Positions 469 through 57,197 of a stretch of DNA of 64,000 nucleotides are shown in pieces (the stretch's first letter is position 1; each line of letters starts with the position of its first letter). The notes beneath the pieces are model-generated. The model made no database searches, was not told the origin of the DNA, and saw nothing but the letters and a program-made list of their open reading frames with translations. The position numbers and the translations under genes are program-made. The stretch comes from an uncultured Acidobacteriota bacterium (GTDB lineage: Bacteria > Acidobacteriota > Terriglobia > Acidiferrales > UBA7541). The DNA lies in NCBI GenBank assembly GCA_963732135.1, contig CAVSYC010000004.1:34484-98483 (forward strand). The letters are read 5' to 3'.

Positions 469-2052
469 TTGCAATTCGAGCCAAAAGATCAGTTCGACCA
501 GCGGCAGCGCAAACTGGACAAAATCATCGAGGCCGGGTTTACGGCGTACCCGCATGAATTTCGCTGGACCGCGACGCCCGCCGAGCTTGCTAAAAAGTAT
601 GCCGATGCCACTGCGCCGGAACTGGCAGCAAGCAAGATCGAGGCTAGCATTGCAGGGCGCCTGGTGTCATACCGCCTGATGGGCAAGGCCGGCTTTGCTC
701 ACGTGCAGGGAGGCGAAGGGCGGCTGCAAATCTACGTTCGAAAGGACGTGGTTGGCGAGCGGGGATTCGGGCTATTTCATCAGTTGGACCTCGGCGACTT
801 CATCGGTGCGCGCGGCCATCTTTTCCGGACGAAAACGGGAGAGCTGTCGCTCTGGGTTGACGAATTAACGTTGTTGTCGAAAGCGCTCTTGCCGTTGCCA
901 GAGAAATGGCACGGTTTGACCGACGTCGAGTTACGTTACCGGCAGCGCTATTTGGACTTGATTGCCAACGAAAGTTCCCGCCGGATATTTCTGACGCGCG
1001 CCAAAATTGTCCAAGAGCTGCGGCGGTTCTTCGATGCTCGCGGATATATAGAGGTTGAAACTCCAATGATGCATCCGATTCCGGGAGGAGCGGCGGCGCG
1101 GCCGTTCGTGACGCACCACAACACCCTGGACATTGATTTGTATTTGCGGATTGCGCCGGAGCTTTATCTGAAAAGGCTGGTGGTTGGCGGTCTGGATCGC
1201 GTGTATGAAATCAACCGCAATTTCCGCAACGAGGGAATTTCCACTCAGCACAATCCGGAATTCACCATGTTGGAATTTTATGAAGCCTACAGCAACTATC
1301 GGGATCTGATGACGATGAACGAAGAGTTGCTGGCGCAATTGGCGACGAAGATTACCGGTTCGACGAAAGTAAAATATGGAGAAGTGGAGCTGGACTTCGC
1401 GAACATAGAGCGGCTGACGATGCGTGGGGCGATCGTGAAGTATTGGCCGGAAGGCGCTGGCACCGCTCCAACCGTCGAAGACCTGGGTGTGCCAGGAGGC
1501 GCAAAAGCTTCGACCGAGCGCTACAACGTATGGGCCAAGACCGCTCGTGCACCCTATGCAGCGTCGAAAGGCGCTTTGAGCGACGGCGAATGGACCGGAT
1601 TGCTCTTCGAAGCCATGGCCGAGGATAAATTGATCCAGCCGACGATTTTGTACGATTTTCCCACCGACATTTCACCGCTTTCCAAGCAAAAACCGGATGA
1701 TCCATCGCTGACCGAACGTTTCGAGATTTACGTCGCGGGGATGGAAATTGCCAACGGCTTTTCCGAACTAAATGATCCGGCCGAACAGGAGCGCCGCTTC
1801 CTGGCGCAAATACAGCAAGGAGGCGATGAAGTACCAAAGCAATTGGATGTGGACTACGTTCGCGCACTTTGTCATGGACTGCCGCCGACGGCGGGCGAAG
1901 GAATTGGAATCGATCGTTTGACGATGCTGCTCACCGATTCGCACTCCATTCGCGACGTCATCTTGTTCCCGCAACTTCGTCCCGAAGCGCCAGCCTGCGT
2001 AGAGCCGGAGTCCCGCGAAGCCCCAGTGGAAACCGAAGGGCACGGCGCCTAG
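469..2052 (+). CDS. lysS: Lysine--tRNA ligase (class II)
   Basis: OB-fold anticodon domain (AGRLVSYRLMGKAGF), RYRQRYLDL, YLRIAPELYLKRL, FRNEG..HNPEFTMLEFY, motif 3 GIGIDRL. Likely TTG start at 469 after GGAACAGGGG; ORF is open from 313. Confidence 0.97.
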   Translation: MQFEPKDQFDQRQRKLDKIIEAGFTAYPHEFRWTATPAELAKKYADATAPELAASKIEASIAGRLVSYRLMGKAGFAHVQGGEGRLQIYVRKDVVGERGFGLFHQLDLGDFIGARGHLFRTKTGELSLWVDELTLLSKALLPLPEKWHGLTDVELRYRQRYLDLIANESSRRIFLTRAKIVQELRRFFDARGYIEVETPMMHPIPGGAAARPFVTHHNTLDIDLYLRIAPELYLKRLVVGGLDRVYEINRNFRNEGISTQHNPEFTMLEFYEAYSNYRDLMTMNEELLAQLATKITGSTKVKYGEVELDFANIERLTMRGAIVKYWPEGAGTAPTVEDLGVPGGAKASTERYNVWAKTARAPYAASKGALSDGEWTGLLFEAMAEDKLIQPTILYDFPTDISPLSKQKPDDPSLTERFEIYVAGMEIANGFSELNDPAEQERRFLAQIQQGGDEVPKQLDVDYVRALCHGLPPTAGEGIGIDRLTMLLTDSHSIRDVILFPQLRPEAPACVEPESREAPVETEGHGA

Positions 2053-2066
2053 CCCGTGTATTCCTG

Positions 2067-3293
2067 ATGCGATTCGAATGGTTTGTCGCCCGGCGGCATT
2101 TACGGTCGCCGAACCGTCCAGCTGTGCTGCGGCTGGTTACCGCGTTCAGCATACTCGGGGTTATGGCAGGCGTGGCGACTCTGGTGATTGCGCTGGCGAT
2201 GAACACTGGATTTCGCGAAACGCTTCAGGATCGCCTACTCGGGGTGACCGCCCACATTTCGCTAACGCGGCCAGGGTCTGGTGGTATCCAGGATTACGAA
2301 GCGCTGGCAACTAAACTTTCGCGAATTCCAGGTGTAACGAGTGTGACTCCGGCCGTGTATCAAACGGTGTTGATGACATTCGGAGGAGAATCGCGCGGCG
2401 TGGTCGCAAAGGGAATCGAACCAGCTCGCGAAGAGGCTGCGGACGAAGCGCTGCGCAAACTGTTTTCAGGAAAGCTGGACTTTCAGTCCGATGCCGATGG
2501 TATTGATGCGCTGCTGGTGGGCAAACAACTGGCCGATGATTGGAGGCTTGGGCCCGGCGATTACGTGACACTGACCAGTCCGCAAGGCCGCCTGACGCCG
2601 TTCGGCCTGCTGCCACGAACCCGCCGATTTCGAGTAGCGGGAATTTTCGATTCCGGTTTTTATGATTATGATGCGAATTGGTGCTTCCTGAAAATAGATG
2701 CAGCGCAGGCACTCGCCGGCGCTTCGAATGTTGTAAACGTACTGGAGTTTCGATTACGGAATCCGGAAGCTGCTCCGGGGATCGCGCGTGAAATTGAGCA
2801 ACAAGCCGGCATGGGATTCGCGACGTCTACCTGGATGGAGCAGCAGCGAGCGCTGTTCCGGGCTTTGCGGCTGGAAAAACTGGTCACCGCCATTTTTATA
2901 GGGTTGATTACTCTAGTGGCGGGCTTGAATATTCTTGTGGTCCTCTCCATGACGGTGACCGACCGCGCGAAAGACATCGCGGTGCTGCGTTCGATGGGTT
3001 CGCGGTCGCGCCAACTGCGCACTATTTTCCTGTTGCAAGGATTTACGATCGGCGCAACGGGGACAATCCTGGGGCTAATATTAGGGTATTCGTTCGCGAT
3101 CATTGCAGCAAAATACCAGCTTATCCCGCTCGACCCACAGGTATACGCCGTACCTTACGTGCCGTTCCATCCGAGCGCGATGGACGGAGTGTGGATTTCA
3201 GTAGTAGCGATGGGAATATCGCTTCTCGCGACGATGGTGCCCGCGCGGGCTGCCGCGAAGCTGTTACCTGTGGAAATCCTTCGTTTTGAGTGA
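2067..3293 (+). CDS. LolC/LolE-family (FtsX/MacB-type) lipoprotein-releasing ABC permease
   Basis: MRFEWFVARRHL start, SILGVMAGVATLVIALAMNTGF TM1, periplasmic domain, AIFIGLITLVAGLNI and DIAVLRSMG motifs; followed by a LolD-like ATPase. Confidence 0.88.
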   Translation: MRFEWFVARRHLRSPNRPAVLRLVTAFSILGVMAGVATLVIALAMNTGFRETLQDRLLGVTAHISLTRPGSGGIQDYEALATKLSRIPGVTSVTPAVYQTVLMTFGGESRGVVAKGIEPAREEAADEALRKLFSGKLDFQSDADGIDALLVGKQLADDWRLGPGDYVTLTSPQGRLTPFGLLPRTRRFRVAGIFDSGFYDYDANWCFLKIDAAQALAGASNVVNVLEFRLRNPEAAPGIAREIEQQAGMGFATSTWMEQQRALFRALRLEKLVTAIFIGLITLVAGLNILVVLSMTVTDRAKDIAVLRSMGSRSRQLRTIFLLQGFTIGATGTILGLILGYSFAIIAAKYQLIPLDPQVYAVPYVPFHPSAMDGVWISVVAMGISLLATMVPARAAAKLLPVEILRFE

Positions 3294-3634
3294 GTTAGTC
3301 CCGCACAACGCAGTGCAAGTTTGGCCCCCGGCTTGCACTTTACTCCAATTGGAAGTGGCCCGAAATGCGGTTCGGTCGCGCCTCGAAAAGACCACATTTC
3401 GGCACCGCAGAAGTGCTTGATATGTAAATGCTTGCGAGATTCCCGAAATGGCGTTTTGCTTCCGGCTCCTCTCGACGGACTGATTGCTTGAAAAACGGGA
3501 CCAAACGGAAACAAACGATTCAGCGGGTGTAATGTTCCGAGGACGCCACAGTTCTGGCTATTTCTTGCATCTAATTGAGTGACGATAAGTAAGCAAGGGC
3601 CAAAGGATAAAAAGCTGGGATTGTTCTCTCAACC

Positions 3635-54287: not shown

Positions 54288-54551
54288 ATGGCTTATGTGA
54301 TAGCCGAGCCGTGTATCGGCACCAAGGACACTGCCTGCGTGGATGTGTGCCCGGTGGATTGCATCCACCCACGTAAAGACGAACCGGAACATGAGGGCGT
54401 GACGCAGCTGTATATCAATCCGGTCGAGTGCATTGATTGCGGCGCGTGCGTGCCCGTCTGTCCGGTGACAGCGATTTTTGCCCTGGAAGATTTGCCGGAG
54501 AAGTGGCAATCGTTCACGGCGTTGAACTCGGATTGGTACGCAAAGAAGTAA
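54288..54551 (+). CDS. fdxA: Ferredoxin (7Fe FdxA-type)
   Basis: MAYVIAEPCIGTKDTACVDVCPVDCIH and CIDCGACVPVCP. Confidence 0.93.
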   Translation: MAYVIAEPCIGTKDTACVDVCPVDCIHPRKDEPEHEGVTQLYINPVECIDCGACVPVCPVTAIFALEDLPEKWQSFTALNSDWYAKK

Positions 54552-54575
54552 GCTGACGGATCGAATGGAAGAACG

Positions 54576-54605
54576 AAAACGGCACGCGAGAGCGCGCCGT
54601 TTTTT
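54576..54605 (+). terminator. Rho-independent terminator of fdxA (group IIC intron target hairpin)
   Basis: AAAACGGCACGC-GAGA-GCGCGCCGTTTTTT. Confidence 0.85.
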
Positions 54606-54609
54606 ATTG

Positions 54610-55234
54610 GTACGCCGCGCATGCTCGACAGCTTGGAGGTGCAAGTCCTCTTCACAACCTGATAGAGGTGAAGTGATAGCGAAGCGCAAGGGCGTCGCTG
54701 CGAGGCGGGGTCTGAAGGAAGCGTGGAGCAAAAACGCGAGCCAATGTACAAGAACCGAATCTGAGGCGTGAGTGTCGGGCGAGCGGGCCAATGATCGCGA
54801 AGCCCATATCTATCAAGGACGCAAAGCGTAAATTCGGTGGTTGTGCGTGGAAAGCAGTCGAGCTTATCGCGGGAGATCTGTTGCATGTCTCGGATTCGGG
54901 ACTGAGCGTGGAGTAATTCACGCTGATCCTGCAGCAGAAGTCAGCAGCGGGCGTAGTACTCACGCGAGTGAGGAAGGCCCAAACAGTAAGAGTGAATAGT
55001 AGAACGTCGAACTCACGGGTGGCACTGCGCCAGCCAATCAGCTCCGGCTGAGCTTTACAGGTTCAGAAGACGGTGAAGCCGAAACGGAAACCTGCAGAGC
55101 GGCGAAGCCCTTGTGGCGGACGACGACTCGAACCTCCGGCCCGCAAGGGCTCAACTTGCTGAACCGCCGTATGCGGACCCGCCTGTACGGTGGTGTGGGA
55201 GGGGCGAGCAGGTGACTGCTCCCCCTATCCCGAT
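54610..55234 (+). mobile_element. ORF-less class IIC group II intron (625 nt)
   Basis: 5' GTACGCCGCGCATG; DI landmarks GAGGTGCAAGTCCTC, CGCAAGGG...TCTGAAGGAAGCG, GTAAAT, GGAAAG...CTTA..GGGAGATCTG; DIII CAGAAGTCAGCAG...GTAGTAC...GGAAGG...AAC; DV GAACCGCCGTATGCGGACCCGCCTGTACGGTGGT (55161-55194); DVI ending CCCCCTATCCCGAT with a bulged A. DIV is only about 176 nt. Inserted just after a terminator. Confidence 0.92.
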
Positions 55235-55280
55235 GTGCGCCCGGCAGGGGCGGACGGGTGACCGTCCCCCCTATGTCGAT
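55235..55280 (+). mobile_element. 46-nt group II intron remnant (5' end fused to DVI and 3' end)
   Basis: GTGCGCCCGGCA + GGGGCGGACGG-GTGA-CCGTCCCCCCTATGTCGAT. Confidence 0.8.
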
Positions 55281-55400
55281 TTTGGTAAGGTCGCAGGCAT
55301 CGCTGGGTGGACGACCGCCAACCCTCCTTCGGACTTTGACATCTATGGAATTGCCGAGCTGGCTTGGGAGTAGTTAGGGAACGCTCGGGAGGAATAGCAC

Positions 55401-57197
55401 GTGAGAAGAATTATTTCGATGATTGCCGGTGCGGCTTTGTTGACGGGCGCGGGACACCTGGGCGCTCCGGCGCAACAGCAGGCAGCAGCGGGCGCCGCGG
55501 CGAAGCACGGCAAAGCCGCAGGCGTTGTGCACCACGCTCCGGAAGAAGGAGATTGGAGCGGCGCGCTGCAGGTCGGCGAAGCGCAACTGCACCTGGTGCT
55601 GCATTTGAAAAAGAATGCGCAAGGCGAGTGGCAAGCGACGCTGGATAGTTTGAATCAGGCGGTATATGGAATGGAAGCCTCGAACGTGAAGCGCGGCGAA
55701 GATACGCTGGCATTCGAGTTGCCGTCAGTGGGGGCGCACTTTCAAGGCAAAATTTTGCCGGACTTTAAGACCATTCGCGGGTTGTGGGAACAGGGCGGGA
55801 CTGGCCTGCCGCTGTCGTTCGAAAAGCGCGTGCCGGGAGCAGAAAAGTCCGCCGCCAAAACAGTTTCGAAATTGGAAGGCACGTGGCAGGGCGCGATTGA
55901 AACCGGCAATATGCGGATGCGGCTGCAACTGCACGTCGCGCATGATGACAAAGGCGAATTGCTCGCGTCCGTGGATAGTCTGGACCAGGAAATACAGGGG
56001 ATTCCGGCGTCGAAAGTAACCGAGCGGGCAAGCGAAGTACGATTCGAGCTTGCTGCGTTCGGAGCGCAATATCTGGGAACGCTGAGCGCGACAAAAAACG
56101 AGATTGCCGGACACTGGAGGCAGAACGGAAATGATGAAAAGCTGGATTTCCTGCGCTCCGATAAAGTTTTGGAATTGCGACGGCCGCAAACTCCAGCCAA
56201 GCCGTACCCGTACAAGGTAGAAGAAATGTCGTTCCCAGCAGGAGATGGAAAAGCGACGCTTGCAGGGACGCTGACACTTCCGCAGGGAGCGGGGCCATTT
56301 CCAGCGGCAATTTTGATCGGTGGATCAGGCCCGGTAGATCGAGATGAAACGCTAGCCGGGCATAAGCCATTCCTGGTTCTCGCGGATGCGCTGACGAAAA
56401 ATGGAATCGCGATTCTGCGCTACGACAAACGCGGCATCGGACAATCCAAGGGCGACTACACGGAAGCGACGATGCAGGATTTTGCGCAAGACGCGCAAGC
56501 GGCTCTGGCGTACATGAAATCGCGCGGCGAAGTAGACGCCAAGCGATTGGGAATCATTGGCCACAGCGAAGGTGGAATTCTTGCTTCCCAGTTGGCGACG
56601 CGCTCGCAGGACATGCATTGGCTGGTGCTGCTGGCGACGCCGGCCACGACCGGAGAAAACACCTTATTGCGGCAGTCGGAGCTGATCGCTCGTGCGGGCG
56701 GATTGCCCGAGGAACAAATCACGCGCAGCCTGGAGTTTGATCGCAAGGCTTATGCGGCAGTGCGCGCAGAAAAAAACGCGGCTGCACTTGAGAAAAGGTT
56801 GGACGTGTTGGTGCAACAAAGCGGATTGGGCGAAGCGATGCCTCCCGCCGCGCTGCAAGCCCAGATCCGGTTCATGACTTCGCCCTGGTTCCGGCAATTC
56901 CTGGATTACGATCCACAACCGGTGCTGGAAAAGTTGCAGTGCCCGGTATTGGCGATGAGCGGCGACCGCGACCTGCAGGTGGACTCAACCGAAAACGTGC
57001 CGCTCTTGCGCAAGGCGTCCGAGATCAGCGAGAACAAGGATTTCACTGTGGTTGAGGTGGCAGGCGTCAACCATTTATTTCAGACGGCTCCGTCCGGCTC
57101 GCCGGCGCTTTATGGCGCGATCGAAGAAACAATGGCGCCGCAAGTGTTGACCGCCGTGACCAGTTGGGTGACGCGGCACACCTCGTCCTCGCAATGA
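55401..57197 (+). CDS. Exported alpha/beta-fold hydrolase with two N-terminal repeat domains
   Basis: Signal peptide; two G.W.GA...L.L.LH...DS..Q repeats; GSGPVDRDE, RYDKRG, nucleophile GHSEG, GDRDLQV, NHLFQ. GTG start after GGAGG. Confidence 0.88.
   Translation: MRRIISMIAGAALLTGAGHLGAPAQQQAAAGAAAKHGKAAGVVHHAPEEGDWSGALQVGEAQLHLVLHLKKNAQGEWQATLDSLNQAVYGMEASNVKRGEDTLAFELPSVGAHFQGKILPDFKTIRGLWEQGGTGLPLSFEKRVPGAEKSAAKTVSKLEGTWQGAIETGNMRMRLQLHVAHDDKGELLASVDSLDQEIQGIPASKVTERASEVRFELAAFGAQYLGTLSATKNEIAGHWRQNGNDEKLDFLRSDKVLELRRPQTPAKPYPYKVEEMSFPAGDGKATLAGTLTLPQGAGPFPAAILIGGSGPVDRDETLAGHKPFLVLADALTKNGIAILRYDKRGIGQSKGDYTEATMQDFAQDAQAALAYMKSRGEVDAKRLGIIGHSEGGILASQLATRSQDMHWLVLLATPATTGENTLLRQSELIARAGGLPEEQITRSLEFDRKAYAAVRAEKNAAALEKRLDVLVQQSGLGEAMPPAALQAQIRFMTSPWFRQFLDYDPQPVLEKLQCPVLAMSGDRDLQVDSTENVPLLRKASEISENKDFTVVEVAGVNHLFQTAPSGSPALYGAIEETMAPQVLTAVTSWVTRHTSSSQ

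Follow-up and report, generated by a model that had tools for sequence, protein, structure and literature searches.

The ferredoxin terminator and the elements behind it

The window, by which is meant the whole 64,000-nt stretch of DNA that was analysed, carries a small ferredoxin gene followed on the same strand by an intrinsic terminator, a group IIC intron, an element of 46 nt and a gene for an alpha/beta hydrolase (Table 1). The ferredoxin terminator with its T-run is the 5' exon for both insertions. The resident intron, for which the list of open reading frames contains no reverse transcriptase (RT) ORF, appears intact, and its position directly 3' of the terminator is the typical one, as class C introns generally sit just after terminators (PMC4424553). 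The single G at 54609, between the T-run and the resident intron, has no counterpart in the empty alleles of relatives, and at one related locus (L115, ~3295-3297) an extra GTG, also absent from the empty alleles, lies between the T-run and the 5' end of the intron; such extra bases might have been left by even older introns or have been added without a template.

Table 1. Features of the ferredoxin-hydrolase locus, with positions in the window.
Feature	Position	Strand	Basis
Gene for 87-aa 4Fe-4S ferredoxin, the terminator of which is the insertion target	54288..54551	+	ORF; Pfam Fer4_7/Fer4; identical protein in syntenic loci L113-L120
Intrinsic terminator hairpin (core CGGCACGCGAGAGCGCGCCG, 54580-54599) and T-run TTTTTTATTG	54575..54609	+	Sequence; MFE fold; conserved across all syntenic loci
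Resident 625-nt ORF-less group IIC intron (GTACGCC...CCCGAT)	54610..55234	+	Rfam group-II-D1D4-3 (124.8 bits), D1D4-1, Intron_gpII DV/DVI
Putative 5'-end stub GTGCGCCC of the presumed older intron	55235..55242	+	GUGYG fit; 6/8 versus parent GTGTGCCG; begins exactly at the stacked junction
Complete domain VI and 3' tail of the presumed older intron (GGCA GGGGCGGACGG GTGA CCGTCCCCCC TA TGTC GAT)	55243..55280	+	37/38 versus parent DVI; fold; covariation
Empty-site flank on the right (TTTGGTAAGGTCGC...), extending to the downstream gene start	55281..55400	+	Alignment with empty alleles L118, L121; X1/X5 contigs
Gene for 598-aa alpha/beta hydrolase (S15/S33-like), conserved downstream neighbour	55401..57197	+	ORF, Pfam; syntenic in L113-L119, L121, L122

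The 46-nt element (GTGCGCCCGGCAGGGGCGGACGGGTGACCGTCCCCCCTATGTCGAT, 55235-55280) directly abuts the ...CCCGAT end of the resident intron. Rfam places the end of the DV/DVI match of that intron at 55234, where the matches above the gathering threshold stop, and a search of 55235-55330 at E<=10 returned only noise; the first-pass annotation was thus right to describe an element of this length stacked immediately behind a full intron. The 46-mer is present in a single copy in the window (0 matches in shuffles), where neither the whole sequence nor its 5' half nor its 3' half recurs.

Empty and occupied sites in related genomes

The ferredoxin protein is unchanged on many contigs, the flanks of which are ~88% identical to the window, and the loci sharing it accordingly belong to different species of one group. 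Ten species-level relatives with the same ferredoxin comprise five with an empty site (L113, L114, L118, L121 and L122) and five with an occupied one, the occupied sites being those of the window, L115/L119, L116, L117 and L120. From the terminator anchor to the CCGCCAACCCT anchor the distance is 77, 77, 77 and 74 nt in the four empty alleles that were measured (L113, L118, L121 and L122, in no particular order), and 748 nt in the window, which equals 77 + 625 + 46, so that both elements are clean additions. The empty-site sequence that had been predicted from the window by removing both elements is correct to within 1-2 nt when compared with these four alleles and with the length of the window locus (the site in L118 reads ...GCCGTTTTTTATTTTGGCCAAGGTCGC...).

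Repeated IIC insertion at one terminator, which had also been proposed from the window sequence, is borne out by the empty alleles together with the differing occupants of the same site in relatives: a full intron encoding a 498-aa RT (L120); a 1.07-kb intron with a broken ORF and a DVI of the type found in the 46-mer (L115), which recurs with a further 5' deletion in L119; a 78-nt remnant in which 12-19 nt of a 5' end are followed by filler, by the terminal bases of DV and by a DVI of a third type (L116); and a 214-nt remnant composed of ~50 nt of a 5' end, unrelated sequence and the last 23 nt of a resident-type DVI (L117).

The intron of L115/L119 was considered as an orthologous full-length ancestor of the 46-mer and rejected. 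These loci are nearest to L118 (94% identity, versus 88% to the window), which is empty, and the window is the outgroup; the L115/L119 insertion is therefore independent of the one in the window. Exact-protein look-ups with the window hydrolase and with a metallo-beta-lactamase-fold protein gave no match, the nearest homologues being ~92% identical, so that the comparison includes no near-identical strain.

Domain VI of the 46-nt element and its parent lineage

The 46-mer folds into a hairpin of two helices (CGGCA/UGUCG and GGGG/CCCC) with a GUGA loop and a bulged UA, at -26.6 kcal/mol (z = -2.8; 1 of 200 shuffles folds equally well), reproducing the hairpin with a bulged A that the first-pass annotation described. 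The bulged A, which is of the branch type, occupies 55273, 7 nt before the 3' end. Across the sampled lineages, 99% of the cells in the DVI helix are paired, and four pairs have changed on both sides in a compensatory manner. A terminator scan did not call this hairpin as a terminator. The DVI of the 46-mer differs from that of the resident intron at 9 of 38 positions, with compensatory pairs among the differences.

Identical copies of the 28-nt DVI core were found at 35 loci in a scan of one genome per species, all of them Acidobacteriota MAGs, and in a further 78 copies in JGI soil metagenome contigs. Nearly all of these 113 copies lie at the 3' ends of IIC introns, and in ~107 of them the core is preceded by an intact DV and the linker GUGU-GGCA. 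The parent introns, all directly behind terminators, are ~1.87 kb long and RT-encoding; one copy is ORF-less and 606 nt long. The last 38 nt of the 46-mer are identical to the domain VI and 3' tail of this lineage (102 copies) at 37 positions, and the sole difference, C>T at 55276, replaces a G-C pair by G-U and keeps the pairing. The resulting GTCGAT variant, present in 0 of 119 DVI copies, is private to the 46-mer. Identity to the parent, together with the pairing and its compensatory changes, marks this as the genuine DVI of a separate lineage and not a duplicate of its neighbour, in agreement with the earlier proposal that the 5' end and the DVI with its 3' end came from an intron other than the resident one. 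Judged by sequence, the source of the 46-mer is an RT-encoding IIC lineage with the 5' end GUGUGCCGAGCA and the DVI GGCAGGGGCGGACGGGUGACCGUCCCCCCUAUGCCGAU.

Three fragments that appeared to retain only DVI (L008, L025 and L076) were considered as further elements of the 46-nt kind and rejected, as they are full introns split at J5/6 by an IS110-family insertion sequence. This element (~1.5 kb, with DEDD_Tnp_IS110 and Transposase_20 domains; ~1470-3012 on the intron strand in L008) interrupts IIC introns of the parent type precisely in the linker between DV and DVI (...CCGGTGGTGT-IS-GGTGTGGCAGGGG...). One MAG has it at two loci, and an unrelated soil contig carries it as well (90% identical), which suggests that it targets a conserved intron motif.

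The 5' end of the 46-nt element

In the parent introns the basal 5' strand of DVI already consists of GGCA (GUGU-GGCA-GGGG...UAUGCC-GAU), so that only GTGCGCCC is left to explain, and only these first 8 nt (55235-55242) were counted as unambiguous 5'-end material. They fit GUGYG, with GTGCG at 55235-55239, and share six of their eight positions with the 5' end of the parent (GTGTGCCG). That end is near-invariant, 35 of 38 sequences reading GTGTGCCGAGCA. Had a deletion run cleanly from the GCA of this 5' end to the GCA within GGCA, it would have left GTGTGCCGAGCAGGGG..., from which the observed 5' part departs at 3 of 12 positions; the 5' part is thus more diverged (2/8 or 3/12 differences) than the DVI part (1/38). 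Given the near-invariance of the parent 5' end, the stub could derive from another variant, or could be filler.

In the first-pass annotation, CGGCA served both as part of the 5' end and as the 5' strand of DVI, and the element was attributed to a deletion between microhomologies. The pairing of CGGCA with UGUCG stands, as it is found in the fold. The double role does not stand as described, because the parent 5' end is GUGUGCCGAGCA, not GUGCGCCCGGCA, and what is shared at the fusion point is at most GCA or GGCA, inexactly. Deletion between microhomologies is accordingly plausible with a loose fit, the three departures from the clean product in 12 positions counting against it.

At another locus (L112, 121-160) a parent-type 3' end is followed by GTCGCGCCCGAGGCACTGG, which resembles the 5' part of the 46-mer (GTGCGCCCGGCA) and then gives way to non-intron sequence. 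This resemblance may be due to chance or may represent another stub.

Stacked introns and the order of insertion

Deletion derivatives that retain intron ends measure 46 (window), 78 (L116), 163 (L069), 176 (L045) and 214 nt (L117). Among 99 non-redundant 3' junctions of the family, nine continue into a 5'-end-like motif, versus 0.9-2.8 expected by chance. Full head-to-tail tandems are present at L007 and L065, and stacked intron debris lies behind an intact intron at L110. The debris at L110 (138-520, intron strand) is a multi-layer heap in which TGTG is followed by GTACGCCGAGCC fused to internal DI and then by a rearranged 5' piece. In the two tandems (L007 at ~404, L065 at ~641) the downstream copy lacks its first G (GAT/TGTGCC... 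and GAT/TACGCC..., respectively).

The same absence of the first G was seen in contigs of soil runs X1 and X4 (window 55234->54614), in which a resident-type 3' end is joined to a 5' end; in X1 the G-less tandem junction is the dominant continuation past the intron 3' end, at a depth of ~40. The stacked junction of the window retains G1, unlike most other stacked junctions. T is the first 3'-exon base in 77 of 99 family junctions and G is that of the resident intron, so that insertion directly before G1 is atypical.

Contigs of X1 match the resident intron without mismatch over ~54700-55234 at a depth of ~40, and contigs identical to this stretch, which is most of the intron, occur at high depth in soil metagenomes. 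It has been shown experimentally that a second copy of a group II intron integrates at the unchanged 5' exon, upstream of the first (PMC12584367). From this precedent, from the identity of the resident intron to abundant contigs and from the private changes of the 46-mer, we infer that the 46-mer is the older layer and the resident intron the younger. In other copies of the resident intron, ...CCCGAT is followed by unrelated sequence or by a tandem intron, and the 46-mer does not travel along; it is therefore not conserved with the intron as a 3' extension of the B.c.I4 type would be.

Origin of the 46-nt element

The 46-mer is very probably all that has survived the decay of an RT-encoding IIC intron that had inserted, earlier and independently, behind the ferredoxin terminator. 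It has the GUGYG 5' boundary and the DVI helix with a bulged A 7-8 nt before an AY-3' end that are expected of an IIC remnant, and it lies directly past an intrinsic terminator at a site for which relatives have an empty allele. It is not a group II ribozyme, which would have six domains and a catalytic DV, as its 46 nt include neither DI nor DV.

The history would have begun with the insertion of a parent-type RT-encoding IIC intron behind the ferredoxin terminator. Its interior (DI to DV and the ORF, ~1.8 kb) would have been lost, with fusion of ~8 nt of the 5' end to the intact DVI and 3' tail, through a DNA deletion or through a skip of the reverse transcriptase from DVI to the 5' end during insertion; on sequence grounds either may have been the cause. 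IIC introns recognise the terminator stem-loop and IBS1, both of which are upstream of the insertion point, and the target would therefore have remained intact after the first insertion. The ORF-less 625-nt intron would later have inserted at the same 5'-exon/terminator target, displacing the remnant downstream, and the remnant would have mutated slowly thereafter. An origin by lariat or branch read-through was rejected, since it would give the opposite order (DVI-5'-strand...A/GUGCG) and lose the 3' tail.

Without DV or DI the remnant cannot catalyse any reaction, and because it lies outside any ORF its removal is not required. It occupies an intergenic spacer that is left empty in relatives, and it is most likely inert. 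The first-pass annotation envisaged a possible substrate for the adjacent ribozyme, and 55280 could conceivably be used now and then as a distal 3' splice site, since the 46-mer still has the 5' motif and the branch helix and the 3' exon begins with T, the base favoured by the family (77/99). There is a slim chance that such ends-only elements are made in one retrohoming step, the reverse transcriptase jumping from DVI to the spatially adjacent 5' end, and are also still competent as 3' acceptors, with the resident ribozyme using the DVI of the 46-mer and 55280 as an alternative site for the second step. If this were so, they would represent a bacterial analogue of group III introns and of mixed twintron splicing.

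Alternative explanations

Since BLAST aligns only positions 9-46 to the parent introns, the 46-mer might be a 5'-truncated DVI fragment that starts at GGCA (55243), left by abortive cDNA synthesis or later truncation, with GTGCGCCC as unrelated filler of non-templated or rearranged sequence. The agreement of this 8-mer with the invariant parent 5' end is limited to six positions, and 5'-truncated copies do exist in the family (L007, with the break inside DV; L102, at TGTGGCA; and L119). However, a random 8-mer would by calculation match at six or more positions in only ~0.4% of cases, GTGCG fits GUGYG exactly and does so precisely at the expected stacked junction, four other remnants in related loci retain exact 5' ends, and the length arithmetic of the window requires all 46 nt to be extra. 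Truncation is on this evidence unlikely, although more deserving of consideration than an error of assembly, in which a tandem full-length intron would have been collapsed. Both neighbours of the 46-mer are repeats, and no independent contig crosses 55234/55235 or covers 55235-55242. Such a collapse is nevertheless very improbable, because the joined parts share 3-4 nt (GCA/GGCA), far below the overlaps used by assemblers, because contigs of two independent runs (X1 and X5) join the 3' half of the 46-mer, with its private GTCGAT, to the unique right flank, and because an analogous 78-nt remnant occupies the same site in an independent assembly (L116).

Two further readings would give the 46-mer an activity. 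As a functional appendage it would provide the resident ribozyme with a second DVI and 3' splice site in the manner of B.c.I4, or would be a group-III-like mini-intron removed in trans, roles with which GUGCG, the intact DVI helix, the bulged A 7 nt from the AU-3' end and the first 3'-exon T (the preferred IBS3, 77/99) are compatible. All three substitutions in the 46-mer keep pairing or consensus, and both splicing 50-70 nt past DVI and group III introns are known (PMC4424553). This reading is nonetheless quite improbable: other copies of the resident intron lack the 46-mer, the DVI is from another lineage, DI, EBS and DV are missing, splicing is not needed in an intergenic spacer, relatives do well with an empty site, and no second example was found among the 113 DVI copies or in the metagenome pattern scan. 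The first-pass annotation suggested that it might be a dispersed, MITE-like element; such an element would be a non-autonomous derivative mobilised by full-length introns. In favour of this, both element ends are retained, and the same habitats are rich in full-length and ORF-less relatives. A MITE would exist in multiple dispersed copies. Searches for the 46-mer in the window, among DVI-core copies and in metagenome contigs recovered no second copy: it is unique in the window, 0 of the 113 DVI-core copies are of the 46-mer type, and a gapped pattern of its architecture had 0 matches in metagenome contigs. Its GTCGAT variant recurs in none of 119 DVI copies. Reverse splicing requires DI and DV, both of which the 46-mer lacks. 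Dispersal is the least credible of these alternatives and was abandoned in favour of a decayed remnant.

Comparison with known introns

The literature already covers remnants of group II introns, copies with internal deletions, integration in tandem and the targeting of terminators (PMC4181065, PMC12584367, PMC4424553). The 46-mer adds an extreme case to this known type of remnant, produced by ordinary decay of a mobile element. By itself it is most likely a dead fragment, and its value is that of a dated layer in a natural series. The surrounding hot-spot series, an unusually clear site of repeated insertion, is more instructive: among soil Acidobacteriota of one genus-level group, a single conserved terminator has received at least five independent IIC insertions, with stacking in which the youngest copy lies beside the terminator. 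From the series it can be seen how a target becomes saturated and is reused by IIC introns, and to what extent an intron can shrink with its splice-site ends kept. It also carries a warning for annotation: where a GUGYG...DVI hairpin stands alone behind an intron, it should be read as a fossil and not counted as a further element.

FRE652, an RmInt1-like remnant of Sinorhizobium (PMC4181065), is like the 46-mer a non-autonomous group II leftover in intergenic DNA that decays slowly, but it is a 652-nt 5' fragment (DI-DIII) that has spread to several replicons, whereas the 46-mer consists of ~8 nt of a 5' end and DVI in a single copy. Internal deletions and loss of G1 have been reported for fragmented bacterial group II introns (PMC4181065). 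With IIC insertion after terminators and with tandem integration (PMC4424553; PMC12584367) the locus shares the stem-loop and T-run target, the unchanged 5' exon, the placement of the new copy upstream and the ...AU/GUG... junction. The experimental tandem, in contrast, was formed by a IIB1 intron with an EBS3(U)-IBS3(G) wobble (PMC12584367), whereas the family described here prefers T at IBS3; its natural tandems mostly lack the downstream G1, which the window junction keeps.

The nearest structural analogue of the 46-mer is the group III intron of Euglena chloroplasts (PMC4424553), which likewise lacks DV but has a motif at the 5' boundary and a bulged A in its DVI. Group III introns are 90-120 nt long, have DI-like parts and are spliced from within essential genes (PMC4424553), whereas the 46-mer is half that size and intergenic. 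The 3' extension of the B.c.I4 type (Stabell et al. 2007, as summarised in PMC4424553) similarly separates DVI from the 3' exon by an additional structured segment of ~50 nt. In that summary the extension is conserved and moves with its intron, whereas other copies of the resident intron are not followed by the 46-mer, which comes from another lineage.

The resident intron, and not the 46-mer, resembles the HYER or ORF-less class IIC ribozymes (Liu et al. 2024, as cited in 10.1101/2024.08.31.610620), which are ~600 nt long, multi-copy and abundant as RNA according to that citation; the resident intron is known here from its sequence, and the 46-mer has no ribozyme core. RNA runs contained only conserved intron parts from other genomes and no contig over the window locus. 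Resident-type introns are present in soil metagenomes as many near-identical DNA copies, in keeping with a HYER-like compact ORF-less IIC RNA, and introns closely related to the resident one reach very high abundance in metatranscriptomes of soil and wetland, with a contig depth of >1000 in run X43.
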